Source: a virus (Duplodnaviria; Caudoviricetes). From it: a DNA stretch of 56,093 bases. Below, in pieces: positions 16,501 through 53,409 of the stretch. The stretch is taken from the IMG/VR virus record IMGVR_UViG_3300021962_000005, positions 1 to 56,093 of that record; one strand, given 5' to 3'. The translations under genes were made by a program, and so were the position numbers. The stretch's first letter is position 1; each line of letters opens with the position of its first letter. The notes under the pieces were generated by a model. It searched no databases. It worked only from the letters and a program-made list of their open reading frames with translations, and had not been told where the DNA came from.

Positions 16501-18257
16501 CCAGCCCTCATCAGTGAGGCCAACTGTTGCCCAGTGGCGGCAGCTTGCGCAAGTCCGCTGGGGCGAGCAGAGGGCGGGCGGCCTGCTGTCGCCAGCTTCG
16601 CGACGGCAACCGGGTTCTTAGCCATCGAGGCGTAGCCGCCACCAGAGCCGGGCGTGCCGCTTGCGCCAGCGGGAGACTTGCCGCCGTACATTCCAAGCGC
16701 GGCCTGCTGCGCCCTAATAATATTGGCCCAATCCATATCAGTCATGCCGCCGCGAGCACGCTCGGGACGACCACCTGCGCCGTAGTAACCGGGCCGATCC
16801 ACATAACCACCGCGTGCCAAATTGTCAGACCAGACGGGTCCTTCAATCATCCGCTGCGAGCGGATGCCCGCCAGTTTGTCCATTAACTGCTGCCGACGCT
16901 GCTGCCCATAAGCTTCGCCGCTTTCGAGAGGGCGGCCACTATACAGAGACGCCAACTCTGCTTCCCACCCTTCGCGCGTGCCGAGAGACAATCCTTCAGC
17001 CTGCGGAGCGCGATTAATTGGGCCAGCAAACGGCTGGATCGGAATGACGCCGCCAGCAATATTTGGTTGCGGGGACACAAAAGACAAACCAGTTGGGCGA
17101 GCTTCGATTGGAGCAGGGGCAACAGCGGTAATCTGGTGCGGCTGGAAAGCCATCAATCCCGCTTTTGGCGCAATAGGTTTATCTTCAAGTGGACCACCTT
17201 CAGCTTTTTTGGCTGCGTCGGCTGTCGCTTTCTTGTAGTCGACCGTGAGAGCCTTCGCGCCGCCAAGCCCCGGAACCTCAGCTTTTCCAACGGCTTCTGG
17301 ATGCTTCTCGGCAACTTCCTGCGCGGACAACCCAATCTGTGTGCGTTTGTCGCCCTTGTAATTGAAGCTGTAGATGGTTTGACCGTCTTTGGTCTTACCA
17401 ACCGGACGCATGTTCTCCTTGAGACGCTCGTCAGAGAAAAATCCTGCAGGCTGCGTCGTCGTGGTCGTGGATCCGGACAGCGAGCCGGTCCCCATAGCGA
17501 TGTTAGCAAGGAACTGCGCAATTTGGAACGGATAGGCGCGTTCCTGTTGAAACTGATTGTAGAGCGCCTGCAGGCCAGCCTGCTGCGTCTGCTGCTCCGT
17601 AGTGCCCGCAGAAATCTGCGCCTGAGAGCCACCAAGAAGAGCTTGTTGTGCGCCACTCCCCAGACCAGCAAGCTGTTGGCCCGCAGCTAGTTGCCGCTGC
17701 AGATCTTGAGCGACGACCCCCTGCTGACCAGCGGCTGTTTGAATAGCGTTTTGGTACGCCTGCTGATAGATGGGATTGATAGCCTGCGCCATACCAAGAC
17801 CCTGCTGACGGGCCAGATTGGCCATCTGAATGCCTGCGCGGTCTCCACCAAAGGCTCCCGAGCGAATAGCATTGCCTATCGCGCCCTGCGTCTGTTCGGC
17901 CTGCTGCTGCTGCAGCGCGGCAACGGTGGGGGCCACTACAGCTTGAGTATATGGGTTTTGATAGTATTGTATCTGTTCGGGGCTGAGAGCCCCCACATTC
18001 TGCGCACCGCCCATAGTCATACCGGAGGCAGCCTGATAATAGGGCTGCGCCATGCCAGCGGCCTGATTTACGTTAGATAATCCAGCCTGCTGCGTCGCCG
18101 TCATAGGAGCGACGAAGGCGTTCGGGTCTCCGGAATACTGTTGGAAGGGCTGTTTGGCGACGGTATCGGCGCGAGCATTTACTGCGTTGTATCGAGCAAG
18201 TACCTCGGGGGGTATCTGTACCTGCTGCGTAGTAGTTTGCGACTTGCCACCGCCCAT
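13512..18257 (-). CDS. DNA ejection/pilot protein (1581 aa) with two Peptidase_S74 domains and an SLT domain
   Basis: MGGGKSQTTTQ Gln-rich N-terminus; SDERLK and SDPRVK S74 starts; QESGF..GLTQI..AYNAG transglycosylase. Confidence 0.8.
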   Translation of the reverse strand: MGGGKSQTTTQQVQIPPEVLARYNAVNARADTVAKQPFQQYSGDPNAFVAPMTATQQAGLSNVNQAAGMAQPYYQAASGMTMGGAQNVGALSPEQIQYYQNPYTQAVVAPTVAALQQQQAEQTQGAIGNAIRSGAFGGDRAGIQMANLARQQGLGMAQAINPIYQQAYQNAIQTAAGQQGVVAQDLQRQLAAGQQLAGLGSGAQQALLGGSQAQISAGTTEQQTQQAGLQALYNQFQQERAYPFQIAQFLANIAMGTGSLSGSTTTTTQPAGFFSDERLKENMRPVGKTKDGQTIYSFNYKGDKRTQIGLSAQEVAEKHPEAVGKAEVPGLGGAKALTVDYKKATADAAKKAEGGPLEDKPIAPKAGLMAFQPHQITAVAPAPIEARPTGLSFVSPQPNIAGGVIPIQPFAGPINRAPQAEGLSLGTREGWEAELASLYSGRPLESGEAYGQQRRQQLMDKLAGIRSQRMIEGPVWSDNLARGGYVDRPGYYGAGGRPERARGGMTDMDWANIIRAQQAALGMYGGKSPAGASGTPGSGGGYASMAKNPVAVAKLATAGRPPSARPSGLAQAAATGQQLASLMRAGSGAYDWARNKMSVVPGGGSANLGTAGFNPQRDEWTGGGKSVTTTAPASAARSSLEDMYAAPASDTPIDLGDFARAIELAPFPEDAFEFLARGGRTGYQTKGFVDNETPYANDDESSAEFFSKDEAIKPVNAGSGDFTELLGETIKSGASQPKANPAQPPSNRPQGGDSGVAGLTNLLKTGKSLYDAGSKAASGLGNILGGAEAAGAAGAAEAAGAGLGAAEAAGAGLGALGAEAAGAGAAGALGAEALGAAAAAAPVAAAEALGPAAIAAKIGSLGFSDPRVKHDDGVVGHLFNGQPVHTFKYNNGDNRTRMGLMTTESDRSAVHNIGGLEMLDYKRATDVATGLAPRQAAQTGGLYVDPDMPAEGAVETALNVPRELQPLIAKASAETGIPASIIAAKIAQESGFRKDATGSVGEIGLTQIKPSTARDPGYGMKGVDPESLRDPQANILFGANYLANKARALGLDPSSPEALMAYNAGSAKEKYSRNVMSKAGRYDPAIDAKYADMPAAGAIETAKDVIRPADSRYRFSKEPGQFVKDAPRSAPWRTGGKSLLGSMGVSPDTAEALTSENFVVPALAGIGSMLASTRPTLGGAIGEGLVGGTSAYTALRKQETEEEKAKGPAAVQAETARKTAAETQRLGLYAIPGFGTFYLVEQNGRIRAVTQDEFENLRKSGAEFKQVGAADVPPERLKQINEEIKRTRTPAEPAKVGAGKPEAGKPEAGKPEAGKVTFGYTYTPAIKSMAENEKKVSGNISNQAERNLALESSKDKIKEINAQASASTNDRSNILQVAKDANVIATAEGVAASGTGGEKRIAMLRAMNTIAKMAGKGDAFFGKTISDVGSSDEVLRKARSLSALSRVGTAGQKSYEALNQLAAAFPNANMTSDTIATLTASMIVENQKAIDRNAFWQRYKKDSGGFAANFEEAFKRASPQSKYEAEKKFWIETLKRKSTAAALKELSTNPQEYAKAYDKAKSEQYSGVGRISRYFGVTSYD
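14313..14364. repeat. 15-bp tandem repeats encoding (GKPEA)x3
   Basis: ctttccggcttcggg units within the 1581-aa gene. Confidence 0.85.
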
Positions 18258-18300
18258 ACCATTTCTCCGTTTTCCGGCCCCAGCCGGTCAGCAGGGGACG

Positions 18301-18813
18301 CTATTCAGCCGCCGGCTTCCATTCTCCGGTCTTCTTCCCATAAAGAAAAAAAGCGCCGGACGGTTCGCCAAAAATTCTGCGGTACATTCTGACCTTTCCC
18401 TCAGTCCTTTGATTGGATAGGACACCAATCGTGAGGGGCATGCCAAGCTCGTCCGAGACTCTTTTAGCAAAATCGCATAACTTTCGAGCCCTCCCGCCGC
18501 TTGCCGCCCTGAAGTCGGGATGGATGAACACGGCGCGTTCTTCGAGAATTTGGTGATCACTATACCATATATTCCCAATTCTCAAAAGGATCGCCCCTTC
18601 CGCAGAACCTCCCGGCTCGCTGATTATGCCGATAATGCCTTTATCGCGGTTCAGAGCTGGCCAAATCTCGTACAGCAGCTTCTCCGGGTTTGGAGAAACG
18701 AAGCCGTTTTCTTCGCAGGCGGCCATCGCGAGAGCCATAATTTCGTCCAGATCGTCCGGAGTTGCTACGCGGACAACAAGATTATTTCGCTTTTCACCCT
18801 TTTTCTCAGCCAA
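18301..18813 (-). CDS. GNAT-fold acetyltransferase-like protein
   Basis: VRVATPDDLDEI and VFIHPDFRAASGGRARKL; GNAT-like genes commonly precede podovirus ejection genes. Confidence 0.7.
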   Translation of the reverse strand: MAEKKGEKRNNLVVRVATPDDLDEIMALAMAACEENGFVSPNPEKLLYEIWPALNRDKGIIGIISEPGGSAEGAILLRIGNIWYSDHQILEERAVFIHPDFRAASGGRARKLCDFAKRVSDELGMPLTIGVLSNQRTEGKVRMYRRIFGEPSGAFFLYGKKTGEWKPAAE

Positions 18814-18826
18814 GTGACCCTCTCCT

Positions 18827-19522
18827 CTAGTCTTTCTTGGGTCCGGGCAGCTTCTGAAGCGTCTTTATTGTTTCAGAACGGGTACCCTTTACCCACTCAT
18901 CCAGAGCCGCGTGGCCCCGGTCGATGTCGCCGTTACCAGCCCACATGACTTCTTCGGGAGACAGGACGTATTCGCCGCCAGCGGCGACAATAGCAACCGG
19001 ATCCCCCTCCTGTTCAGCGCCAGTTATTGCAGCGCCTCCCGCGTTCTTAAACATAATTTTGACTGCGCGAAAGCCAGCCATGGTGTTACCCTCACCCAGA
19101 GATGAAACAATGTCCGCCGGGATGACATACGCGCCACTTGGGACGTGCATCGGCAAGTGGTCTGTGCGCCCAGCCACGGGACTGTGAATAGGCCCGACGT
19201 GCAGCTTTTCCGGAGCACCGGTCGGAAGGGGCGCTTTTGTTGGTCCGCCTGTCTTTTTCTTTTCCGGGTCGTCAATCCAGAACATCTTGTCGACGTTCAG
19301 TGAATTGACGTGCGGCAAGCCTTTCGGAGCCGGAGCCAAGTCGCGAAGTTCTTTCGGTACGTCATTGACGTTTGGCATTTTTGCCTTTCCGCCAGCCTGC
19401 CGCGCCTTCCGCGCAGTTTCAAGTGCCGCCGCAACAGCCTGCTTCTGCGGGTGACCGGCCTTCACCATCTCCGAAATATTGGAGCTGATTGTCTTCTGAG
19501 AGGAACCGTGTTTCAAAGGCAT
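18827..19522 (-). CDS. Hypothetical internal virion protein
   Basis: MPLKHGSSQKTISSNISEM..AGHPQKQAVAAAL; GRTDHLP..GAYVIPAD; GGEYVLSP. Confidence 0.7.
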   Translation of the reverse strand: MPLKHGSSQKTISSNISEMVKAGHPQKQAVAAALETARKARQAGGKAKMPNVNDVPKELRDLAPAPKGLPHVNSLNVDKMFWIDDPEKKKTGGPTKAPLPTGAPEKLHVGPIHSPVAGRTDHLPMHVPSGAYVIPADIVSSLGEGNTMAGFRAVKIMFKNAGGAAITGAEQEGDPVAIVAAGGEYVLSPEEVMWAGNGDIDRGHAALDEWVKGTRSETIKTLQKLPGPKKD

Positions 19523-25248: not shown

Positions 25249-25716
25249 TTACTCTACCATAAACGTAAGATTGGGGTGCCGAGGGTAATTAACGGTAATT
25301 TCCCCTTCTGGGCATTTATACCGAATATGAGCAAGTAGTGTGGCCCTACCCTTAGCTACTTTTTTAGGGTTCTTTATTTTAATAGAATACGCGAACTTGT
25401 CTATGCCATCGCCAGCAGGACCAGAGAATTTGGCTATGCTTGGCTCGGCTTTGTGAACAAAAAGAGCCGAATCGCGGACTTCAAGCAAAAACCCCTCAAC
25501 CGAACAATCGTCTCGGAACTTTTTACGCGCAGCAACCACCTTAAAAGAACCATTCGCAGAACCGTTGCTGATAGAAAAGTGAGTAGGAGCCCACTCAAGA
25601 ATACGTTTGTCGGGAGGAAGAACCTTATCCCATAGGCTGTAACCGCCTGTAACAGCAGCGAAAAAAGCTGTGACAACGCCGATAACTTTTTTCCAATTTT
25701 CAGCGTCAGCCCACAT
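25249..25716 (-). CDS. Membrane-anchored hypothetical protein
   Basis: Start MWADAENW; one N-terminal TM segment; locally AT-richer. Confidence 0.65.
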   Translation of the reverse strand: MWADAENWKKVIGVVTAFFAAVTGGYSLWDKVLPPDKRILEWAPTHFSISNGSANGSFKVVAARKKFRDDCSVEGFLLEVRDSALFVHKAEPSIAKFSGPAGDGIDKFAYSIKIKNPKKVAKGRATLLAHIRYKCPEGEITVNYPRHPNLTFMVE

Positions 25717-25717
25717 A

Positions 25718-25963
25718 TTACTTGTCCATTTTTCCGTCAAGTTTATCAAAAATCTTCTGAACAATCCCCTCTATGCGCGACATTGTGTCGTGAAATTCGT
25801 CTTTGGAAACATAAGATTTTGGCAAATCAATTTCAATTTCGTGAACATCGTCTTTGAGTTTCTGGAGACTGTCCCAGACAACCCTCCCCCACCAGCCAAT
25901 TCCGGCCAAAATGATCCCGAGACTGAGGTTTATAAGGGTTTGCGCGTCAACTATCACTTTCAT
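25718..25963 (-). CDS. Holin-like / TM plus coiled-coil protein
   Basis: LINLSLGIILAGIGWWG TM; LPKSYVSKDEF; upstream of endolysin. Confidence 0.6.
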   Translation of the reverse strand: MKVIVDAQTLINLSLGIILAGIGWWGRVVWDSLQKLKDDVHEIEIDLPKSYVSKDEFHDTMSRIEGIVQKIFDKLDGKMDK

Positions 25964-32327: not shown

Positions 32328-32555
32328 TCAGTAATGACTTGCGCTGCCACGCGGAGAACCGCCATGAGCAGAAGAAAAAACACCGCCGCCAGACTTGCGG
32401 GGCTTACGACCAGCGTGAGCTGCAGACATTACGCCTTCAGCCTTCATGCCGACCTTGCCGCCCTTCTTGAAGCCGTCTTTGGTGCTCATAGCAGTGTCCA
32501 TGACGACCTTCTTGCCGACCTTGGAACGCTCGGGGGAAATACGCTTACCTTTCAT
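32328..32555 (-). CDS. Small basic protein with KKGG/KSGG motifs
   Basis: 75 aa; AGGAGG RBS; GFKKGGKV, RKSGGG. Confidence 0.75.
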   Translation of the reverse strand: MKGKRISPERSKVGKKVVMDTAMSTKDGFKKGGKVGMKAEGVMSAAHAGRKPRKSGGGVFSSAHGGSPRGSASHY

Positions 32556-32576
32556 GGGAACCTCCTATTGGTCCGA

Positions 32577-36355: not shown

Positions 36356-36739
36356 TCACCAAACCTGATCCGGGTGCGCAATGCGACCGCGGAACGAAAT
36401 ATCGTCCAAAATTCGGCACAAAACCCCATTGATGGTGATGTTCCAGCCGTCAGACGGGCGGAAAAACAGCCAATCGCCGACGTTTATCTCTTTCCCGTCA
36501 AACCATTTACCGTCACTCTCTTCAAAGGCGCTGTGCCCCTTGGCCAAAACAAGGCCGACCTTCGACTGAAAGCGGTCTTCCTTGGTATCGAGCAGGATGC
36601 CGCCGCGTGTTTTCTCTGGGCGGATGTAGACGCCAACCAAAACCTGCGTGTTGAACATCTCGATTTTGCTTATGTCGCCGATTTCCCTGCGCAAGGCGTC
36701 GGCGGGATCGGCTTCATGAAGCATTGCTATCTTCGACAT
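36356..36739 (-). CDS. groES: GroES/Cpn10-like co-chaperonin
   Basis: PEKTRGGILL mobile loop; VGLVLAKG; VGDWLFF; RILDD. Confidence 0.8.
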   Translation of the reverse strand: MSKIAMLHEADPADALRREIGDISKIEMFNTQVLVGVYIRPEKTRGGILLDTKEDRFQSKVGLVLAKGHSAFEESDGKWFDGKEINVGDWLFFRPSDGWNITINGVLCRILDDISFRGRIAHPDQVW

Positions 36740-37079: not shown

Positions 37080-38576
37080 TTACCGCTTTGCCTTCTGCAG
37101 TGCGGTCTTCTGTAGACGTCCTTCACCCGAACCAGCGCCCGCAGTCAAATCAGCGGCGGACTTAACCACAGTCCGGCCACCGCGCTTGCGGCCCATTGCA
37201 GCCATGAGGCCCGGGGGAAGAGCACCAGCGCCCGGAAGCGGAGGTGGCGGAGCACCAGCGCCCGGAGGTATGCCCATGCCCGGCGGAAGGCCAGCACCAG
37301 CGCCCGGAGGAGGCATTACTGGCGACGGCTGACCGCCCGGCTCGCCCGGAGGCGGCTGCATGTCCGCGCCCCGCGGCGGTGCGGTGTTGATGATGACGTT
37401 GACGTTGGTCTTACCCTTCTTGGTACGGCCACCGGACTTCCGCATCATTGCGCCGGGGTTCTGCATGCCGCGGAGCGGGCCTGCGGGATTCTGCAGGGCA
37501 CGCATGATCGCCGCAACGTCCTGCTGGCCATTCATAGACGGCGTGGCCGGCATTGCGCCACCCATGCCGAGGCCGCCACCATAGAACTTGCCGGGGCGCT
37601 CTGCCTTGCCGCCCTTCTTCAAGCCCTTCATGCTCTCCTGCTTGTCATGCTTCTTGTCCATGTCGGATGCTTCCCAATCCTTCATCGACATCTTGTGCTT
37701 CTTGGCGAGCTTCTTGTCCTGCGCCTCGTCCTTTTTGGAGCCTTCAAACTTCTCGGCCTTGCCGCCTTTTTTGTATGGACTGCCCGAAGAGCCAACGCCA
37801 AAGTTCATCATCTTGTCAGACACCATGCCAAGACGCGGATCCATAACCAGCTGGCCCATCGGTCCGCCGTTCATCTTCTTTCTGCGTCCACCCTTTTTCA
37901 TGCCGGTCTGGGCGCTCTCCAACTCCTGCCGGTATTCTTTGGATGTCATCTCATTAAGAAGATCGGGACCGACAGTGCGAGACTGCGACGGCGTCACACT
38001 CTCGCTGCGGCGCACTGTGGTTTTTGGAGCTGCGGCAGCAGCGGCTGCGGCTGCGGCTTTATCTATAGCGTCGCGTTCTTTTGCGGTATAACGGATACCA
38101 GCATCGCCAGTGAATGTGCTCTTTGGCCCTGTTCCCAACTTGGCATCAATTCGTTCCCGAGCCGTCATGGGCGGAACGGCGCTCCCGCCATCTTCCTTCT
38201 TTGCGCGGCCACCCTTCTTCATGCCGCCGACGTGCTTGACGCCTTCGCGCTCTTCGTTAGCTTTCTTCTTATTGCTGTTAGCAGTAGCGATGGCGAAGTC
38301 CTTGGCCTCTTTCTTCTCCTCATTGACGAGGCGGCCGCCAGCCTTGCGAGCCTTGCGGCCAGCGTGCTTGACGCCTTCCGCACCCTTGGCCTTCAGGCCG
38401 GACTTCTTGACAGCCGGATCCTTCGACAGGGGCCGCATGCCGGCCTTCACGCCAGCGTTCAGCGGGCTGGCGGGGGACCAGTTCTGGCTGCCGGGGTTTT
38501 CGTCGCCGCCACCGGCCATGCGCCGGGCTTTGGACTTGAGGGCCTCTCGGGCCTTCTTTGCAATATCATAATACAT
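37080..38576 (-). CDS. Lys/Gly-rich putative internal head protein with about 11 xxGG motifs
   Basis: 498 aa; MKKGG, YKKGG, LKKGG, RKSGG, RKRGG; Pro-rich tail; AGGAG RBS. Confidence 0.75.
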   Translation of the reverse strand: MYYDIAKKAREALKSKARRMAGGGDENPGSQNWSPASPLNAGVKAGMRPLSKDPAVKKSGLKAKGAEGVKHAGRKARKAGGRLVNEEKKEAKDFAIATANSNKKKANEEREGVKHVGGMKKGGRAKKEDGGSAVPPMTARERIDAKLGTGPKSTFTGDAGIRYTAKERDAIDKAAAAAAAAAAPKTTVRRSESVTPSQSRTVGPDLLNEMTSKEYRQELESAQTGMKKGGRRKKMNGGPMGQLVMDPRLGMVSDKMMNFGVGSSGSPYKKGGKAEKFEGSKKDEAQDKKLAKKHKMSMKDWEASDMDKKHDKQESMKGLKKGGKAERPGKFYGGGLGMGGAMPATPSMNGQQDVAAIMRALQNPAGPLRGMQNPGAMMRKSGGRTKKGKTNVNVIINTAPPRGADMQPPPGEPGGQPSPVMPPPGAGAGLPPGMGIPPGAGAPPPPLPGAGALPPGLMAAMGRKRGGRTVVKSAADLTAGAGSGEGRLQKTALQKAKR

Positions 38577-38621
38577 CGCGTGTTTCTCCTTGGAGTGTTG
38601 CCGGGCGTCCCCGGTCGCTGC

Positions 38622-41600
38622 CTAATCCTTGCTTGGCTCCGGCAGCGGAGAACCAATTTCTGAAGAACCTTGATCCGACGAAAGCACTGCGCCTGCACCC
38701 AAAGCCGCGGGTAAAAGACTGCGGATCGTCAGCATATCATATACCGGATGCTCTTTACCTTTTGAGTATATCCTTCCAACCTCGTTGCCGGGGTACACAT
38801 TGCCTTGCGTTGTTGGTTTAAGCCGTGGCTCGCTTTTCTGATTGGGATATTTTTCAAGATCAACGCCTTTAGGAAAATCTGCTCCAAGGGCGAAGTAGTG
38901 TTTTTGTCTATTTTCTGCGCTAACTAGGGTGGACACGTTCTCATATCCCTTCGGAACGTCTATCCACTTCCATCCGGTACTTTTCCTGTAAAGATTTGTT
39001 TTTGTTTTTGCGCTCCCCTTACCGGGAGAACCCGTAACTTCTGCCTGAACCGGATCCACCATAAATATAGGTTTTCCATCTGGAGTTACGCCAATGACAG
39101 CGCGAGACGGCTTCATACCAGTCAATATTTCTCCAGTGGCAGGATCAATATATTCTCCTCCCGGCGGCCTTGCTCCTTCAGGAAACATTCTTTCGGGTTT
39201 AGGGAATACTTTTTTCCCGCCTCTAACAAGATTGAGTGCCGCTTCCAGTGCGTCAGAGACAACCTTGCCCCTGCCCGCATAGCCTTCGCGCTCCTCTACC
39301 GGTCCGCCGTGGGCGTAACCGAGCATTGCATCAATTATGTCTTTATGTGTTGTCTTCTCACCAGCGGTCTTATCCCAAATCTCATGATGCGTGAGATGTT
39401 GGCGAAGTGGCTCATACTCCGAAGGCAAACCCAAGTTCATCGCCTTTTGCCGAGCAGCAAGGCGATCTACACCCTCCAATGCCCCAAAAGATTTTTGCCC
39501 CTGAAAAGACCTACCTAAAATTTTTTTAGAGGCTTCTGTCGGCATGCCAGTATGTAAAATGATTTGACGAGCATCTAATGTAGGAAGATCGCCACGACCG
39601 AGCGTTGCTGCATAGAAGCCGGATTTAGCAGGGCCGATGCCGCGCAAATCAGAAGTAAACGCTCTCCATTCGTCTGGAGACGACGCGCCCTGACCGCCAC
39701 GGTAAATCAAATCGTTAGCTTTTTCTGCTCGTCCGGGTAAGTTCCTGACGGCAAAATCCATAGCTTCTGCCTGTCGGTTTTGAAGACCGAACCCACGAAT
39801 TAGATTCATTGCCTGATCAACAGTGTCTTGAGACAGATTACCTTTTACCCCTTCATCAAGAAACTTTTGCCCCGCAGCAGACTTTAGCCATTCTGCCCAC
39901 GCCCCTTCTGGACGAATTTTTGCTTCTGCGTCAGCAAGAGGCAGGCCAGACAGAGAACGGATCTTATTTGTGTCAGAGGCACGGCGCTGGATGCTGGCCA
40001 TTGTAGTCGTATAAGCCTTGAGCAAATCCCGATCTGTTATGTCGCCCTTTCGACCTTTCTCGATCATCTCGCGCATAAAGTCGCCATATTTTAGAACGTG
40101 CGGAGATATTTCAGTAGAACCAACATCTTTTGCGACATCAGAAACCGGACGCCATTGCCAATCCTTGATCTTTGTAGACTCCGGATCTTTGAACGTCTTC
40201 AGGTTATCTAAAATCTTACGCAACGCCTTCGACACGACTGCGCTACCGCCCGCATAGCCGTCGCGCTCTTCTACCGGTCCGCCGTGGGCGAAGCCGTATT
40301 TTTTTATCCGTTCTACAGCATTACCAACGCTGTTTATGAACTCTTCATTTATCGGTTGTGCTTGTTTCTGTTCGGTGAACATTTTTCTTGAGGAACTCCG
40401 ACCACGCGAATCCGGAGACATTGGGTGCATGATCTCGCCAGATTTTGTTCTTCGACCCAGTAGATCAAGCGTCGGTGTCGGCGCTACGTCCTGTGTTGGT
40501 AGTAGGGGAACATCCATAGTGTATCTTCCAGCAGATACACTGGGATAAGTTGGATGTTCAAAAACAAGAGACGGCTTCACTTTACCGGCAGTGTCGAACT
40601 CAACTATTCTTCCTCCAAGAACATTTTGCGGAGATACTTTAAATTCAGGGTCACTTACTGCAGCGCGAGTCACACCTACGTTTGGAAAACCAAGTTTTTG
40701 CCACTCAGTCTTTTCCATTAACTTCATAAGGTCTGCCCTATGAGTAGCGCTCGTAAAAATATTTGCGGCTTTAAGAGCATCTTCTTCTGTTTTTATGTTT
40801 AATATGCCCGGCCAATTTTCTTTCATCAGATTGGCTACTCTTTCTCTATCTTCTACTTTTTGAACGAATGTTCCTTTCTTTACAGCAGCATCAAAAGCCT
40901 TTGCAGCTTTCTTTGTTATTTTAGACCCCGGTATCTGAGACATCATAGCATTAAAAAAATCGACGGAGCTATCGACCGCCGTTGGACCCATCGGGGAATA
41001 CACACCAAAAACTGGCCCTCGTTCACTAAGAGCCGCTATTTTGTTTTCAAACGAAGTCGTGTGACTGGGGGCGTTTGCCCACACTGCTCCGGGGTTACCC
41101 TCCAACATATATTTTGGGCCACCATGTAATTTAACCGCCCACGCGGTTGGCTGCCCATTTATAGAAGTTAAAACTCCCTGATTTAAACGGTCACCGCCAA
41201 CATTTAGAAATGATCCGCCTTTACCAACGTTGTAGAAATCTTCCCAGCTACCTTGTTTTGGACGATGAGGTACTATGCCGGGAAGAGGAGATATGTCTGC
41301 AGTCACATCTGAAACAGCCATTGGAGGCTTTGTCTTAAAGTATGTTCCACTGCCAAACTCAGAACCGCTTGGCACCTTGTAAGTTTCTAAGATACGAAGA
41401 GCCTCTTTTACAATTTCTGGGTCAGAGGATAACGGGCTTAGAAGTTTATTCCGAGCAGATATTTGGGCAGCAACTTTTGCAAGATCCGCTTCTGACGGAG
41501 CGACGGCATTATAGGTCTGAGACCCCAACCCACTATTGTGCCCTATAACCGCAGAAGCTATCTTTTTCGCTATATCTAATTTTCCTGCTTCAGCATCATC

Positions 41601-43052
41601 GGGAGACATCACTGCTGCGCCCGTTGCGCCAGCGGCGGCGGCCTTCCCTGCAGGTGACGCAAGCACGTCGCGTGCTGTACGAAGGGCCGCGCCAATTGGT
41701 TTGCGAGCAGCCGCGGCAAAAGGAATGCCAAGGGTCGCGGCGTTAATAGCGGCCTCCCCTGTATTACCCTTGCGATATGCTTGTGCAGCGTCAATCACTG
41801 TAGGAAGAGCGAGAACGTCTGTAAGGCCAACACCATACGTCGGGCCAAATAGAGCTTCACCGGCACGCCTACGAAGCTCTGATCCGTAAGACGGGCCGCC
41901 TTCGCCCGCAATGACCGCCGCGGCTTTTGCCCTCCAATCATCTCTTGGACGAACAGTCGCCTCGCCCGGACGCACCGGGAAGTTGCGATAGTTCTGCAGC
42001 GCCCGCTGCCAGCCCTCGCCGTCAGCCTTAACCTCTTCGCCTTCACGCGGCTGGATGCTTGCTACGGACTGCCGCATTCTGGCGCGGTCACTCATTCCGC
42101 CATCGGCCATGACCTGACGGCCAACCTCCGGCATATACTCTGTCGGGTATTCGTCCTGCAGCAGGACAGGGCCGCCGTCTGCAAAGCCGTCGAGATCCTC
42201 GACCAGCTCCGGCTCGACGTAGTCGTACTCGTCGTCGTAGATCATCTCCGGCTCGATGTAATCGTACTCGCCTTCGACTTCTCCGCCGCCCGCAAAGCCG
42301 GGGTTCACGAAGTCTGCAACCTCGTTCAGCAGGCCACTGACAATGCCGCCATTGGAGTAGCCCTCATCTGCGGGCTCCGGCGGCGTCTCAGGCTCAACGT
42401 AGGGGCGCAGCTCCTGCAGCGCCTTGTCGGCACGGAAAAAATCTGCGGCGTTGTCCGGGTCGCCCCAGTTGATGACGCCGTTCTGGACAACAGGCTCGCC
42501 TGAAGACTGGTAGTCTTCTCCGCTCAGGACAGCGTTGGCGATGGCCTTGGCGGTCGCCGCTGGGCTTGTAACGGCCTTGTAGACCTGCTGCGGAATGCCT
42601 TTGGCGGTGGCAATGGCGCGATCTACAACGTTCTGCGGGGTATTGGGCTCAAGCCTGTCTGCGTATGCAAAAGACGGAAGCGTCGGGCTATTCTTGTCGC
42701 CAATGTTGAATGGCGCGACCGCCAATCCTCTGTTGGCAACCCACGAAGGCAATTGCGCCCGGGGCCGAGTGTTTCCCATTTCGGGAACTGGTTTGTAAAT
42801 ATTTCCAGCCCGCAGAGTGCTTTTTACTTTCGGCCCGTACTCTTCGTCCACGACCGGCTCATACGAGGGCCTCACCGTCAGTGGACGAGCCTCTGCGGCA
42901 ATCTCTGCCGCTCGGCGCACCGCCTGCTCCTGCGCACGCTGCATCTGGCGAATGCGCATCGCACCCTGCTCAAAGCGGCCACCGCTTTCAGGAGCGTAAG
43001 ACTGGCCATATGGGACGAGACGGCGGCGGCTGAAGAGGGTGTAATCGTCCAT
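38622..43052 (-). CDS. Large multi-module protein (1476 aa) adjacent to portal
   Basis: Modules separated by GFADGG/GFAHGG/GYAHGG linkers; one module has an HhH motif. Confidence 0.8.
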   Translation of the reverse strand: MDDYTLFSRRRLVPYGQSYAPESGGRFEQGAMRIRQMQRAQEQAVRRAAEIAAEARPLTVRPSYEPVVDEEYGPKVKSTLRAGNIYKPVPEMGNTRPRAQLPSWVANRGLAVAPFNIGDKNSPTLPSFAYADRLEPNTPQNVVDRAIATAKGIPQQVYKAVTSPAATAKAIANAVLSGEDYQSSGEPVVQNGVINWGDPDNAADFFRADKALQELRPYVEPETPPEPADEGYSNGGIVSGLLNEVADFVNPGFAGGGEVEGEYDYIEPEMIYDDEYDYVEPELVEDLDGFADGGPVLLQDEYPTEYMPEVGRQVMADGGMSDRARMRQSVASIQPREGEEVKADGEGWQRALQNYRNFPVRPGEATVRPRDDWRAKAAAVIAGEGGPSYGSELRRRAGEALFGPTYGVGLTDVLALPTVIDAAQAYRKGNTGEAAINAATLGIPFAAAARKPIGAALRTARDVLASPAGKAAAAGATGAAVMSPDDAEAGKLDIAKKIASAVIGHNSGLGSQTYNAVAPSEADLAKVAAQISARNKLLSPLSSDPEIVKEALRILETYKVPSGSEFGSGTYFKTKPPMAVSDVTADISPLPGIVPHRPKQGSWEDFYNVGKGGSFLNVGGDRLNQGVLTSINGQPTAWAVKLHGGPKYMLEGNPGAVWANAPSHTTSFENKIAALSERGPVFGVYSPMGPTAVDSSVDFFNAMMSQIPGSKITKKAAKAFDAAVKKGTFVQKVEDRERVANLMKENWPGILNIKTEEDALKAANIFTSATHRADLMKLMEKTEWQKLGFPNVGVTRAAVSDPEFKVSPQNVLGGRIVEFDTAGKVKPSLVFEHPTYPSVSAGRYTMDVPLLPTQDVAPTPTLDLLGRRTKSGEIMHPMSPDSRGRSSSRKMFTEQKQAQPINEEFINSVGNAVERIKKYGFAHGGPVEERDGYAGGSAVVSKALRKILDNLKTFKDPESTKIKDWQWRPVSDVAKDVGSTEISPHVLKYGDFMREMIEKGRKGDITDRDLLKAYTTTMASIQRRASDTNKIRSLSGLPLADAEAKIRPEGAWAEWLKSAAGQKFLDEGVKGNLSQDTVDQAMNLIRGFGLQNRQAEAMDFAVRNLPGRAEKANDLIYRGGQGASSPDEWRAFTSDLRGIGPAKSGFYAATLGRGDLPTLDARQIILHTGMPTEASKKILGRSFQGQKSFGALEGVDRLAARQKAMNLGLPSEYEPLRQHLTHHEIWDKTAGEKTTHKDIIDAMLGYAHGGPVEEREGYAGRGKVVSDALEAALNLVRGGKKVFPKPERMFPEGARPPGGEYIDPATGEILTGMKPSRAVIGVTPDGKPIFMVDPVQAEVTGSPGKGSAKTKTNLYRKSTGWKWIDVPKGYENVSTLVSAENRQKHYFALGADFPKGVDLEKYPNQKSEPRLKPTTQGNVYPGNEVGRIYSKGKEHPVYDMLTIRSLLPAALGAGAVLSSDQGSSEIGSPLPEPSKD
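39274..40296. repeat. 48-bp direct repeats (39274-39321 and 40249-40296) encoding the G[FY]AHGGPVEER[DE]GYAG linker
   Basis: 44 of 48 positions identical by manual alignment. Confidence 0.9.
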
Positions 43053-43055
43053 TCC

Positions 43056-45500
43056 CTACTGCTCCTGTTCAGGTGGCAGCAGCGGTCCAAGACCCTCCTG
43101 CACCTGTGGCACTTCCCCCTCCCCGGTTAGTGGCGCTTCGTTTGCTTCGAGCCGCTGGATCATGCCCGGCTCCAAGACGCTTTCGATCACCGGCATGCCC
43201 GCCGGGTTCTTGGCGATGTCCTCCGCCAGCCTGACGGCGGCGAGGCGCTCGCGGCTTTCGCGGTCGCGCTTGCGGTTGATGGCGTCGAGCTGCATGTCCT
43301 GCTGCTTGATGTCCATCTCCTGCTGACGGAGCTGCATGTCCATCATCTTCAGCGGGTCCATCTCCTGCCCCGGCTGCTGCGCACCGAGCTGGGCGGCCTC
43401 GGCCCCCGTCTTCTGCGCCTGAGCCTGAATGTTGGCAATCTCGGCCTGCGTCTTTGCAGCCTCCAACTGCTGCATCATCGGATCCTGCGGCTGGCCCTGA
43501 CCCTTCTGCGCGGCATTGGCCTGCGCCGTGAGCATTTTGGCGTCGGCTTCCTTCTGCTTGATCTCCAGCATCTTCTGGATCGCCTGCTGCTCCGGCGGCG
43601 GCTTGGCGGCCAGTGCGCCCGGAGGCACCATGAACTGCTGCGGATTGCTCCAGCCCATCGCCTGCAGGGCGGCAGTGTCGATGGCAATCGGATCATACAG
43701 GCTCGGATTAGCAGCCTGAAGCTGCTTCAGGCCCATGATCTTCATCATGCGCTGCGCGTGGCTGGCCGTGTTCGGATCCGCCTGCGGGACCAGATCGCAG
43801 TCGTCCAGCGCCTTCAAGAACGTCTGCTCGTCCCACTGGTTCGTCATGGCGTCCTGCTTCTGCCAGAAGCTCTCGGGATTTTCCTTGAACGTCCGGACCA
43901 GCAGGGAGAACTCCTCGGCCTGCGCCGTGTGCATGCGCTTGTGGACGCTGTTCAAGACCTTAGTGGCCTGATCAATCATCGCCAGCGTTGTGCCGACCGG
44001 GGCGTCTGCACGGCCCTCTCCGACCTGCTGCTCGCTCGTTCCGCCGATGCGCATGCCGGTCTCGGCCATGTTGTTGACCAAGTTCATCAGCGCAGCGCCG
44101 GGCTCCTTGTAGGGTAGCGGCATGACAGCCTGATTGATCGGCATGCCGCCGGTCTTGATCAGAGCGCCACCGCCGGGCGGCACGCGGAAGATGTTTGTGT
44201 TCTGCCGTGCGCCGGTGTCGGCGTACAGGAAGCCGGGGAAGTTGGCGTACATACCCGCGTCCAGCATCTCACGCCAAGCAGCAGTAATGGCATTGGTCGT
44301 GTTGCCGAGGATATGCAGCAGCCCGATGTCGTAAAACCCAAGGCCGGGGACAAACGTGTACTTGACGAAGTTTTGCCTCGCCTCCGGCAGTTCGGCCTCG
44401 TCCATGTCGTAATTGCGAACAATCGACAAAATCTCGCGGGTCGAGACGTCAATGGTGACGCGATACGGAACCTCTAAGCCACTGATCTTGCCCTTGTATT
44501 TGTGCTCGAAGCCGAGGATGTCCAGCTCGCAGTAACACTCATATATTTCCCGGTCGCGGTCTTCTGGGCGGAACACGCCCTCAGATATTCCTTCTACCGA
44601 GCGCTTTTCCCGCTGCGCGGCATCGAGCTGCGCCTCCTTCGGAGCCGACAGATCAGTGTCGCGGTAGACGCCGAGAATTTGCAGGCGGCGGACGGTCGAT
44701 GAACGCATCATTACGCGATGCGTAATTCTCTTGGCGTTCCGCAGGTCGGTCGCAGCGTTGTTGACGATCAGGTCTTCAGCATCGACGCTCTCGCTGACCG
44801 GGCGGCCACGCAGGGGGCAGAAGTAGACCTTCTTGAAGGCCGTCCCGCCGAAGCCGAGCATCAGCAGCATGCGGTCGGTGTCGGGGTAGTATTCGGCCGC
44901 GGTGCTGGTCAGGTAGTGGTTCAGATCGCGTTCCAGCGCATTGGCGAGCTGGTCTTCCTGCAGCGTCGGTGTATTGTCGTCGTTGCGGATCTTGACCGGC
45001 CCGTCGGTCGGCAGCAGCTCGCTGCGGGCATTGGCCTGAAAACGCAGCACGGCCTCCAGCAGCAGCGGGTGGCGGACTTGGCTCATGCCCTCGACCGGTG
45101 CGCCCTCAGACGCGCCCTGCAGGTTCGGCACCTCCAGCTTCAGGCCGAGCAGCTTGATGCCGGTCGCCCGGTTCTCGACCCACTCTTTGCGGCTGTCGAT
45201 GTCATCGTCAATGCCTCGCAGCAGATCGTCGGCAATGCGGCCCAGTTCGGTCTGCGGGATGTCTTCCACCAGATTATCGAACCACTGCTCCTGCCGCCGC
45301 TCTTTGCGGTCAATGGGCTGTCCGTCAAGCGAGACAGTCACCGAACCGTCGTCGTGCTCGATGCGGAGGATCTCGCCATCAGAATTGATCTCAGGAACGT
45401 CTTCGCCGGCCTCGATGATCACGTCAGGCATGTCGGCCATATTCGGCTCGGGGAGCCCCGGCAGGCGAATGGACGGGTTTACGAGGCCCGGTGTCGGCAT
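43056..45500 (-). CDS. Portal protein
   Basis: HPLLLEAVLRFQANARSELLP..GPVK; G.AFKKVY; PGLGFYDIGL; follows TerL. Confidence 0.9.
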   Translation of the reverse strand: MPTPGLVNPSIRLPGLPEPNMADMPDVIIEAGEDVPEINSDGEILRIEHDDGSVTVSLDGQPIDRKERRQEQWFDNLVEDIPQTELGRIADDLLRGIDDDIDSRKEWVENRATGIKLLGLKLEVPNLQGASEGAPVEGMSQVRHPLLLEAVLRFQANARSELLPTDGPVKIRNDDNTPTLQEDQLANALERDLNHYLTSTAAEYYPDTDRMLLMLGFGGTAFKKVYFCPLRGRPVSESVDAEDLIVNNAATDLRNAKRITHRVMMRSSTVRRLQILGVYRDTDLSAPKEAQLDAAQREKRSVEGISEGVFRPEDRDREIYECYCELDILGFEHKYKGKISGLEVPYRVTIDVSTREILSIVRNYDMDEAELPEARQNFVKYTFVPGLGFYDIGLLHILGNTTNAITAAWREMLDAGMYANFPGFLYADTGARQNTNIFRVPPGGGALIKTGGMPINQAVMPLPYKEPGAALMNLVNNMAETGMRIGGTSEQQVGEGRADAPVGTTLAMIDQATKVLNSVHKRMHTAQAEEFSLLVRTFKENPESFWQKQDAMTNQWDEQTFLKALDDCDLVPQADPNTASHAQRMMKIMGLKQLQAANPSLYDPIAIDTAALQAMGWSNPQQFMVPPGALAAKPPPEQQAIQKMLEIKQKEADAKMLTAQANAAQKGQGQPQDPMMQQLEAAKTQAEIANIQAQAQKTGAEAAQLGAQQPGQEMDPLKMMDMQLRQQEMDIKQQDMQLDAINRKRDRESRERLAAVRLAEDIAKNPAGMPVIESVLEPGMIQRLEANEAPLTGEGEVPQVQEGLGPLLPPEQEQ

Positions 45501-48687: not shown

Positions 48688-48858
48688 AGCTTTACCCTCT
48701 CGTTAAGCAACATAAGAATACGCGCACCGAGGCAAAAAGTCCATACACGCTGTGGATAGCTGCATGGCGCATATTATTTTTTTTGAGAGAATATCCGCCA
48801 TAAGGAAAAAACAAACAATAACAATTATTTAGCAAAATTGGCGTAAACCCGTTAACAG

Positions 48859-48921
48859 TTGACACACGAATTTTATTCGCGTATAGGTATCTCACGGTCG
48901 CTGGTGACCGCTACATGGAGA
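48859..48921 (+). promoter_or_regulatory. Early promoter cassette 1
   Basis: TTGACA-17-TATAGG, palindromic spacer, CGGTCGCTGGTGACCG hairpin, ATGGAGA RBS. Confidence 0.85.
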
Positions 48922-51948: not shown

Positions 51949-52479
51949 ATGAACACCATCATCAAAGCGACCCAAGAGGAAGTTTTCTTTGAAGTAATAT
52001 TGGCCGCAGACACGCTTGCAAAAGCCTATCTGAGTTATATCCCCGTGCCAAAACCTAAAAAGTCAAGAAAGACCAAAAAACCCGAGGCGTTAGAAGAACC
52101 CGAGGCGTTAGAAGAACCCGAGGCGTTAGAAGAGGCCGGCGAAGGCTCTAAGGTTAAAAAGAAAAAGAAAAAGAAGAAAAAATCCGAAGAATCAGAAAAA
52201 CAGAACGAAGAGGTCAGGACATACGAAAAAAGAAAAACAATGCTCTTGGACGCTATCAAATCCAACAAAGAGGATTTCAGTGACGCCAAGGACATTGTAT
52301 CAAATCTGTCAGCTACCATGGACCAGATAACCTACGAAATGACGACCGACGTAACAAAATTTGTGGACGTCAATAGGAAGGTCAAAGAGCTTAACTCTAT
52401 CCTACACATCGGCAGGTCATACCCAAACGACGCAATTAAGCGCACCAAAAAAATTATAGGAATGTGGAGGGGATACTGA
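51949..52479 (+). CDS. Hypothetical protein with (PEALEE)x3 and poly-Lys
   Basis: GGAGA RBS; 18-bp tandem repeat at ~52081-52133; K9 run. Confidence 0.65.
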   Translation: MNTIIKATQEEVFFEVILAADTLAKAYLSYIPVPKPKKSRKTKKPEALEEPEALEEPEALEEAGEGSKVKKKKKKKKKSEESEKQNEEVRTYEKRKTMLLDAIKSNKEDFSDAKDIVSNLSATMDQITYEMTTDVTKFVDVNRKVKELNSILHIGRSYPNDAIKRTKKIIGMWRGY

Positions 52480-52932: not shown

Positions 52933-53175
52933 ACGAGACGCCAGAAGTCTGTTTCCTCGGGATGCGGGATCAACTCCCAGCCTGTCGGCGCAGACCACTT
53001 GAACGTCCAGATCACGATGCCGGGGATCCAGAGGCCCATCAGCAGGCGTTTACGCCACCGGCGCTTCGATACGAGCTTCTTCCGCATACCCTCTCCATTT
53101 ATGAGCATAACGCAAAACTTTACGCATACGGTTAAACCACTGTTTGCAAATCGTAAACGGCAATTTTGCAGGTCG

Positions 53176-53409
53176 ATATGCTCAATATGCGCGAAATTTT
53201 CTATTCTATTTATATATAGAAATGAAATTTCCCCCTTCCCCCTAAAAAATTTGTTTCTCGCGTGTATAGAGATTTACAATATTTTGCGCATTTGCGCATA
53301 TTTCATATGAAATATTCCTTAAAAAATAATAATTTCAAATAGTTACGAAATATGCTCAAAGTATATGCGCAAAGTTTCTTTTGCTCATATTTGGGCTCTT
53401 TGCGCATAT
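53176..53409. other. Candidate replication origin (AT-rich, inverted 10-bp iterons)
   Basis: Eight ATATGC[TG]C[AG]A-like motifs in alternating orientation; 18-bp palindrome at 53298-53315; non-coding; near the primase 3' end. Confidence 0.6.

Follow-up and report, generated by a model that had tools for sequence, protein, structure and literature searches.

The question raised by the virus record IMGVR_UViG_3300021962_000005 is what is encoded directly behind its portal gene. This record of 56,093 bp (hereafter the window, meaning the whole stretch of DNA analysed) is complete, carries terminal repeats, has a mean GC content of 0.56 and represents an uncultured phage, with marine and estuary samples as the source. 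On the minus strand, which also carries the portal and head genes, an open reading frame (ORF) at 38622-43052 encodes a protein of 1476 amino acids (aa), P0001. The ORF begins 3 nt past the portal stop and is followed by a gap of 45 nt to the next gene. Scans against Pfam (E<=0.1) and PHROG returned no family for this protein, MuF included, in line with an earlier claim that a MuF domain is lacking. The original prediction, made from the sequence alone, had described the protein as an in-frame array of swappable modules bounded by DNA repeats. The reading favoured here, to which we assign a probability of about 0.75, is that P0001 is a phage-type polyvalent protein with in-frame cassettes that are exchangeable between short seams, providing a polymorphic payload in a hypervariable post-portal slot.

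The seams are recognizable both as DNA and as peptide. Two direct repeats within the ORF (39256-39321 and 40231-40296) are 82% identical over 66 nt, and the 48-nt windows noticed earlier (39274-39321 and 40249-40296) do match at 44 of 48 positions, with a chance expectation in the window of about 8e-11 pairs. The repeats encode GFAHGGPVEERDGYAGG and GYAHGGPVEEREGYAGRG, of the form G[FY]AHGGPVEER[DE]GYAG, and the translated seam copies read FAHGGPVEERDGYAGG and YAHGGPVEEREGYAGRG. Following back-translation of the shared peptide, the resulting pattern was found at only two sites in the window, both of them the repeats (shuffle expectation 0.18). Weaker copies of the motif, [FY]-A-x-G-G-x-V, lie in the 5′ part of the gene (YSNGGIV at residue 232, GFAGGGEV at 253, GFADGGPV at 290 and MADGG at about 316). 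When a profile of 77 motif instances from relatives was run against the window, the top five matches all fell in the 1476-aa ORF.

Three cassettes are delimited by these seams, all on the minus strand and at limits within a few bases of those originally proposed. Cassette A (aa 488-920, 40293-41591) consists of a header helix and a core at about 40311-41264 and is followed by seam 1 (aa 921-938, 40239-40292), FAHGGPVEERDGYAGGSA, which holds the first copy of the direct repeat and is predicted to be disordered (residues 435-453 of a joint A+B model, predicted local distance difference test (pLDDT) <50). Cassette B (aa 939-1245, 39318-40238) likewise starts with a header helix, continues with a HhH-GPD-like fold at about 39345-40151 and ends in seam 2 (aa 1246-1263, 39264-39317), YAHGGPVEEREGYAGRGK, with the second repeat copy. 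Cassette C (aa 1264-1476, 38625-39263) is beta-rich and highly conserved in a 23-sequence alignment, and was modelled by AlphaFold2 (AF2) with a pLDDT of 78.8; it includes the C-terminal tail GSSEIGSPLPEPSKD (38625-38669). The models describe three separately folding cassettes joined by disordered seams, the folds of A and B being different and C forming a third, beta-rich domain. A helix at the start of each module, as had been claimed, was predicted by AF2 at residues 2-18 and 451-465 of the A+B model and at residues 4-11 of the C model, the helix of A having low confidence (pLDDT about 50-55).

The claim that the modules are richer in AT than their surroundings was borne out as well. The GC content is 0.446 in A, 0.483 in B and 0.482 in C, against 0.61-0.62 in the 5′ part of the gene and 0.625 in the portal gene. 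At third codon positions (GC3) the corresponding values are 0.35, 0.43 and 0.40, against 0.53-0.77 and 0.82. Both seams have a GC content of 0.70 and are in this respect backbone-like.

In front of the cassettes lie three further parts, also on the minus strand. The N-terminal backbone part (aa 1-230, 42363-43052) is GC-rich (GC 0.61, GC3 0.67), and a blastp search with this segment showed that its motif NGVINWGDP..ADFFRAD.AL (42417-42482) recurs among the post-portal proteins of the clade. An acidic repeat region (aa 231-320, 42093-42362) follows, with three weaker Gly-Gly motifs and the motif LLQDEYPTEYMPEVGRQVMADGG at 42096-42164. The third part is an Ala/Gly-rich 'core' (aa 321-487, 41592-42092), for which a PDB sequence search gave zero matches. 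It runs into ..SPAGKAAAAGATGAAVMSPDDAEA, a second, Ala/Gly-rich seam type (41583-41687, minus strand) that ends ..GAAVMSPDDAEA.

Cassette gain, loss and replacement were examined among relatives obtained by scanning IMG/VR with the portal; 531 relatives were found, and 80 of them were kept. The slot between the portal gene and the conserved Gly/Lys-rich gene P0003 varies greatly in length. In the 36 distinct loci with a portal of at least 60% identity and a P0003 homologue (P3), the portal-to-P3 distance ranges from 140 to 7523 nt with a median of 3390 nt, and the slot is practically empty in two of them.

Locus L002 has a portal that is 93% identical in protein. Its post-portal protein of 2196 aa is composed of the N part, two additional modules inserted within the acidic repeat region, the core, A (95%), a seam, a PBECR5 cassette, a seam, an ART-PolyVal cassette, a seam and C (95%), so that PBECR5 and ART-PolyVal stand where the window carries B. 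By blastn, the window matches L002 at 93% over 42182-40218, shares nothing thereafter, and matches again from 39308, inside seam 2. Since homology is lost from 40218 to 39308, B has been replaced in L002 with both breaks in or beside seams. The same type of architecture was assembled independently in a second IMG/VR record, L003.

Two relatives with a 99% identical portal differ from the window in yet other ways. In L065, the 2321-aa allele holds a large module related to a separate gene of phage MW202675.1, an ART-like cassette, a distant A paralogue and a PBECR5 cassette; C is missing, and the last 13 residues of the window protein follow immediately on a truncated seam, the C-terminal tail thus being retained even in this deletion. 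In L064, the PBECR5 cassette follows immediately after the core. The DNA homology of the window to both L064 and L065 stops at 41581, at the second seam type, after which other cassettes follow in these two genomes. The neighbours of the PBECR5 cassette differ between L002, where A stands before it and ART after it, and L065, where it lies between another module and the tail. Other alleles of the clade carry M23, SleB-like and SLT hydrolases, ART, PBECR5 and DUF7178. Backbone DNA identity is 95.8% to L065 against 87.6% to L002, whereas A and C show 92-93% identity with L002 and are missing from L065. The history of the cassettes is therefore not that of the backbone, the backbone being nearer to L065 and A and C being shared with L002.

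The seam DNA itself was compared over seven copies from three genomes (the window, L002 and L065). Any two of the five full-length copies agree at 45-49 of 51 nt, and the agreement extends to fourfold-degenerate positions; the diverged copy of L065 shares 37-39 nt and its truncated copy 27-31 nt. Of the 18 positions of the left flanks, only 1-9 are shared where the upstream module differs. This allelic pattern is what would be expected if seams are exchange points, and recombination at the repeats is a mechanism that would fit both the breakpoints and the sameness of the seam DNA. The proposed in-frame, repeat-bounded organization is also seen in these close relatives, which gain, lose and replace cassettes exactly at seams.

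Contigs from other samples were consulted as well. Part of the stretch is contained, always as contigs, in 24 runs from 21 studies, and four runs were compared in detail. In runs X7 and X9, belonging to two studies, contigs join 38665 to 39292, within seam 2, which removes C as in L065. Loose contig ends at 39315/39317 and at 40218, at the same seams, bear parts of other cassettes: the PBECR5 cassette is represented by its end as well as by its start, and the ART-like cassette of L065 by its end. A contig of X5 covering 38424-39351 is identical to the window and spans the junction of B, seam 2 and C. A deletion of about 975 bp between the repeats, which the original prediction had suggested looking for, was not seen in the contigs of the four runs, in which rare variants are invisible; the reciprocal joint ('goes back 975'), in which the end of B leads through a seam into the start of B again, was found in one X9 contig, and short-sided 'goes back 1017' joints were found in X7 and X9. 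These junction variants support swapping. They amount to support and not to proof, because rare variants do not appear in contigs and joins at shared seams can be chimeric.

That last point leads to a deflationary explanation, in which an old internal duplication sits in a constant structural protein and the variants are contigs made chimeric at the repeat. All relatives are assemblies, and the seams of different strains have up to about 50 nt in common, sufficient to lead short-read assemblers astray in a mixture of strains. The explanation is nevertheless very improbable. The same alternative architecture was assembled independently in L002 and L003, MW202675.1 has yet another order at 47% module identity, which is far past strain mixing, and a library of cluster representatives shows all orders and contexts. 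Moreover, the two seams of the window share no exact run able to confuse a 31-mer graph, and every sampled word of the stretch is present in four runs, which may, however, be where it came from.

The cassettes are also met outside this gene. Cassette C turned up at 56 loci of IMG/VR, with an identity of about 50% and many invariant residues. In ORFs closed at both ends and 365-1530 aa long it occupies an N-terminal, middle or C-terminal place; some of these ORFs lie directly upstream of a distantly related portal, and some also bear ART-PolyVal or LPD23. When 1.84 billion cluster representatives were queried with A+B, 1025 matches at E<=1e-3 were obtained, the matching proteins being 325-2359 aa long. 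Among the best 150 of these, B occurs alone in 66, A alone in 38, B-A in 36, A-B in 4, C-B-A in 2, C-A in 3 and A-C in 1. Where A and B co-occur in these best 150 matches, the order is B-A in 38 (two with C in front) and A-B in 4, the order of the window thus being rare. In MW202675.1 (portal 68% identical in the best segment), three post-portal genes are present, encoding GNAT, M15 and ART-PolyVal in one protein, an 847-aa protein, and B-A-InPase; the modules are only 47% identical to those of the window. Two labels in this record (L001) were set aside. The 'type I restriction enzyme' at 15117-17813 is the B-A-InPase gene, and 'yenB' at 17830-18978 is the homologue of the Gly/Lys-rich gene. 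Elsewhere, cassettes of the window are fused to the catalogued polyvalent domains InPase, ART-PolyVal and LPD23. As far as such comparisons tell, A, B and C are three widespread putative cargo domains outside Pfam and PHROGs that are marked by the seam. The 56-kb record itself keeps no spare cassettes, since the 1476-aa protein matches only its own locus and the seam DNA pattern is found only twice. Neither an invariant domain order nor confinement of the modules to one context, the two outcomes named in advance as speaking against a modular array, was encountered, as the cassettes of relatives vary at seams and the modules occur in many other contexts.

The seam motif was followed in these distant proteins too. 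A Gly-Gly motif stands after 65 of 65 ends of A, in 49 cases within 60 aa of the C-terminus of the protein, and after 85 of 108 ends of B. Stand-alone A proteins end in ..YG[FL]xxGGxVxxALxxxxxKK. Among the B proteins that have no Gly-Gly motif at this place (23 representatives), some of those within the first 25 entries show a ..PAAGAAVMxxE-like stretch after B. In 90 post-portal proteins of the clade, 16% of 295 breakpoints lie at most 10 aa from a motif, against 6% at random places, and for 71 of 135 internal motifs the nearest breakpoint is no more than 30 aa away. Judged on sequence, the Gly-Gly motif is a protein-level mark of module ends across many phages that has been locally homogenised as DNA. 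Because the peptide is conserved far beyond the lineage of the window, the seam also has a role at the protein level. It could act as a loading handle, a hinge or a cut site.

The cut-site option can be extended to a full explanation, in which P0001 would be a polyprotein that is loaded into the prohead as a chain and cut at the seams into separate enzymes. The sameness of the seam DNA would then be a by-product, and cassette exchange would be compatible with it. A seam is kept at every module boundary, long arrays included, and is predicted to be disordered and therefore accessible. The same motif ends modules that occur as separate genes, which would suit a tag used once for each module, either by removal or by recognition. 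Cleavage after Gly-Gly is known from the proteases of adenovirus and African swine fever virus and from Ulp-type proteases. On the other hand, no prohead or other protease family was recognized by Pfam or PHROG in the ORFs scanned (three sets of 10 ORFs, the first two overlapping, including ORFs of the head block from portal to capsid and the five small ones picked between the Gly/Lys-rich gene and the capsid gene), though a novel or host protease might act, and Pfam finds no peptidase domain in the array of the window. In addition, many stand-alone proteins end a few residues past the motif, so that cutting would remove almost nothing. Proteolytic release of domains from polyvalent proteins was proposed in the main text of Iyer et al. 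(2017). Taken together, we regard seams that serve mainly as cut sites as an unlikely though reasonable alternative.

The handle option states that a conserved component of the head, such as the inner face of the capsid, the scaffold, the portal or the Gly/Lys-rich neighbour, is bound by the Gly-Gly motif alone or together with the AL helix. Any module bearing the motif would then be packed, several seams would give avidity, and the DNA sameness would also serve exchange. In hundreds of phage proteins that are not otherwise related, this motif forms the C-terminal tail of modules, and within the window it is confined to this one gene of the head block. Short peptides are known to mark unrelated proteins for an HK97-type shell, namely the capsid-targeting sequences of T4 internal proteins and the cargo peptides of encapsulins. 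By analogy, marking for the shell is one possible role of the seam or tail; the seam differs in being C-terminal or internal, and repeated. The downstream protein P0003 consists almost wholly of about a dozen related x-K-K-G-G-K motifs, but these are basic and have no Val, and may therefore be a different thing. Also, one handle per chain should suffice, yet internal copies persist. In a predicted complex of three capsid protein copies with a seam-plus-helix peptide (residues 908-963) the score was 0.00, which gives no verdict on binding either way. This explanation is accordingly considered tentative, and on the whole unlikely. A bolder version, in which the Gly-Gly seam and its helix are a general, hitherto undescribed address label for tailed-phage heads, by which labelled domains would be packed and afterwards expelled into the host, and which doubles as a recombination site for the in-frame trade of cargo, is speculative and in our view doubtful.

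For the function of the cargo, predicted structures were used in fold searches. The core of A may resemble a PUA-like (YTH/ASCH/EVE) beta-barrel fold with a helical insert, the match score being only moderate; for part of A, matches in the ESM Atlas scored 0.82-0.83, below the usable level. PUA-like domains of the YTH, ASCH and EVE kinds read modified bases in known proteins. Compared with such readers, the N-terminal domain of some McrB proteins included, cassette A differs by its large helical insert and by having no fused nuclease, its partner being a glycosylase-like domain.

That partner, B, has a two-lobed helical fold like that of HhH-GPD DNA glycosylases, of the Ogg2/AGOG, EndoIII and MagIII kind and also of the queuine-salvage enzyme DUF2419 (structures compared: 3n0u, 3fhg, 8a5g, 1pu6 and 7ugk). 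Its motif GIGPAKSGF..GRGDLPTLDARQ (39564-39641) contains Lys1143 and Asp1160, both invariant in 14 of 14 sequences; from their spacing, these may be equivalent to the catalytic residues of the solved enzymes. A cluster of His and Asp residues, QHLxHHxxWD...TTHxD (39372-39401 on the minus strand and the following 20 codons), is likewise invariant in 14 of 14 sequences, is unusual for HhH-GPD glycosylases and may be a metal site. B further differs from these enzymes in lacking a sequence match and in being embedded in a phage head-block array, often paired with A. As models of sequence families gave zero matches, B resembles the HhH-GPD family in fold and is not a member by sequence. For C, the fold search gave zero matches and the ESM Atlas zero usable ones.

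With these models, A and B most likely form a reader-plus-glycosylase pair whose targets early in infection are modified bases of DNA or possibly of RNA. Its purpose might be to attack marked host DNA, to erase a defence mark or to act on RNA. The cargo of the window does not look like a classical toxin, and in this respect the analogy with MuF toxins in the original prediction is to be corrected. A candidate identity of the entire 1476-aa protein as an 'internal virion protein' (28sd_C) was rejected, as the PDB-sequence match (E 0.24) is at chance level and a profile of the core gave no confirmation.

The slot is framed by structural genes. Its upstream limit is the portal gene (43056-45500, minus strand, 814 aa; PF23899 SU10_portal, E 2.6e-17; phrog_1216, E 6.8e-28), with the genes of the large and small terminase subunits (TerL, TerS) further upstream, all flanking head genes being on the same strand. 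The Pfam match to the portal stops at residue 652 and the PHROG match at 738, and residues of about 650-814 (43056-43560, minus strand) form a C-terminal extension of some 165 residues rich in Gln, Ala and Met. It is probably a long helical barrel inside the head and is a candidate partner for the cargo helices. The downstream limit is the gene of P0003 (37080-38576, minus strand), a conserved Gly/Lys/Pro-rich protein of 498 aa whose homologues come after the slot in 44 loci, of which 36 are distinct. P0003 is of low complexity; it contains about a dozen motifs of the form x-K-K-G-G-K/R, ends in a Pro-rich tail and resembles a chain of seam-like motifs without cargo. It is followed by genes for a GroES-like protein, a scaffold-like acidic coiled-coil protein and the capsid protein. 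The GroES/Cpn10-like gene (36356-36739, minus strand; PF00166, E 4.6e-6), within the head-gene block, is annotated in MW202675.1 too.

Packing of the array into the head and delivery into the cell are suggested by the position in the head-gene block and by analogy with the literature on polyvalent proteins. The array might instead be a late-expressed cytoplasmic multi-enzyme that is merely placed among head genes. Particles can be made without the array, the slot being empty in two distinct relatives. Also, the phage already encodes a protein of the canonical ejection type elsewhere. This 1581-aa protein (13512-18257, minus strand) matches the PHROG 'DNA ejection protein' over residues 3-344 and families of lytic tail or endolysin proteins over residues 928-1095, has a single weak seam-like stretch (residues 489-510, 3.9 bits) and is likely the canonical ejection protein of this phage, distinct from the post-portal array. 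A purely cytoplasmic role is nonetheless quite improbable. The gene is on the strand of the head genes and tightly spaced on both sides, and the peptidoglycan hydrolases present in alleles would be meaningful only if they acted from outside the cell, during entry. Moreover, the cargo found in alleles (ART-PolyVal, PBECR5, InPase, M15, M23 and SLT) is the set that is tied to packaged proteins in the main text of Iyer et al. (2017).

The closest described class is indeed that of the phage-type polyvalent proteins (Iyer et al. 2017, J Bacteriol 199:e00245-17, PMC5512222). In the main text of that study, polyvalent proteins are defined, the phage type is tied to portal-terminase phages, packing and delivery are proposed, extensive mosaicism is noted for proteins of Helicobacter prophages, and cassette-like recombination is raised as a possibility for one kinase system. 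Like the proteins described there, the gene of the window joins several unrelated domains in one chain and stands beside the head genes of a portal-terminase phage, and its alleles and relatives carry ART-PolyVal, PBECR5, InPase, LPD23 and peptidoglycan hydrolases. The tested features of the class, which are a multi-domain chain, a portal-terminase head neighbourhood and a fusion network, are thus found in this gene. Unlike the proteins of the published inventory, its three cargo domains match none of the Pfam models concerned, and the array is fused to neither an MPTase nor a MuF domain nor a portal. The words glycosylase, ASCH, PUA, YTH and linker have no occurrence in the main text (supplements aside), nor is a DNA-homogenised, repeated seam described there at which near-identical phages differ. 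A literature search for polyvalent proteins with linker or cassette found nothing on such seams. In the available text of the papers on the nearest cultured relatives, the HTVC023P-type pelagiphages (PMC9599517) and the Roseobacter phages CRP-901 and CRP-902 (PMC10149686), a variable post-portal gene is not mentioned. What is already known, then, is the polyvalent cargo carrier in outline, and what was not found in print is the DNA-homogenised seam.

The comparison first suggested for this gene was with polymorphic toxins. In the MuF-anchored toxins of temperate phages and in Rhs/CdiA toxins with their conserved pre-toxin motifs, a conserved part carries variable effectors and the conserved junction is thought to be the recombination point. 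The post-portal position is common to MuF toxins and P0001, but the latter has no MuF domain, its cargo is no recognizable toxin and the gene downstream of the array encodes a Gly/Lys-rich protein; no immunity gene was noticed, no search aimed at one having been made. Furthermore, several internal cassettes vary here in any order and not the C-terminal tip only. The phage-type polyvalent proteins as treated in PMC5512222 therefore provide the closer frame.

Under the polyvalent-protein reading, a lineage-typical N-terminal part would be followed, in one reading frame, by independent cargo cassettes, in a hypervariable slot between the portal gene and the conserved Gly/Lys-rich head-block gene. 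Each cassette would end in a disordered Gly-Gly seam, and a short 'AL' helix would open the next one. Seam copies would be kept near-identical as DNA, synonymous sites included, between cassettes that have a higher AT content and are not the same even in near-identical phages. In-frame exchange, deletion, duplication or reordering of cassettes would then result from homologous recombination of seam copies, either inside one genome or among co-infecting relatives, and the payload would be polymorphic at the level of the population. Finally, the array would be packed into the head and enter the cell with the DNA, as its gene position and the literature suggest.

Several points weigh against this account. 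The recombination event itself was never seen in the data, and the sameness of the seam DNA could also come from recent duplication and selection. The enrichment of breakpoints near motifs is moderate, with 64 of 135 internal motifs having none inside 30 aa, and 23 of 108 ends of B have no Gly-Gly motif, those inspected having another Ala/Gly-rich seam. As to assemblies, the 'goes back 975' joint is a single contig from one run; among the pieces listed for the four runs, the junction of A, seam 1 and B is unbridged by contigs of other samples, while that of B, seam 2 and C is bridged; and all relatives are metagenome assemblies, in which shared seams could yield chimeric joins. Given the separate 1581-aa ejection-type protein with its lytic domain, the array is unneeded to explain genome delivery. 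The window's own protein carries no catalogued polyvalent-protein domain. For B, 14 members gave nothing in Pfam at E<=1, and a PDB-sequence profile search gave nothing relevant to HhH-GPD.

Some observations concern other places in the window. A small stop-to-stop frame of 78 codons on the structural strand (32331-32564, minus strand), overlapping a plus-strand ORF, contains the seam-like GFKKGGKV (5.5 bits). Small ORFs of low GC content (0.39-0.44) lie at 25249-25963 and 48692-48895 (minus strand) and at 51949-52479 and 52999-53310 (plus strand), and may represent additional genes of recent acquisition.

Polyvalent proteins are regarded as the earliest weapons that a phage introduces into the cell. 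Near-identical phages that differ by whole cassettes at a short seam offer a concrete mechanism for the turnover of this cargo, and the seam gives a sequence feature by which metagenomes can be searched for cargo of this kind. The pairing of A with B points to an unexplored phage action on modified nucleic acid at entry. If the seam were an address label, one motif would explain both the capsid entry and the shuffling of thousands of unrelated phage enzymes and could serve to load chosen proteins into phage particles, and if it were a loading or release signal, it would be useful in practice for protein delivery by phages.

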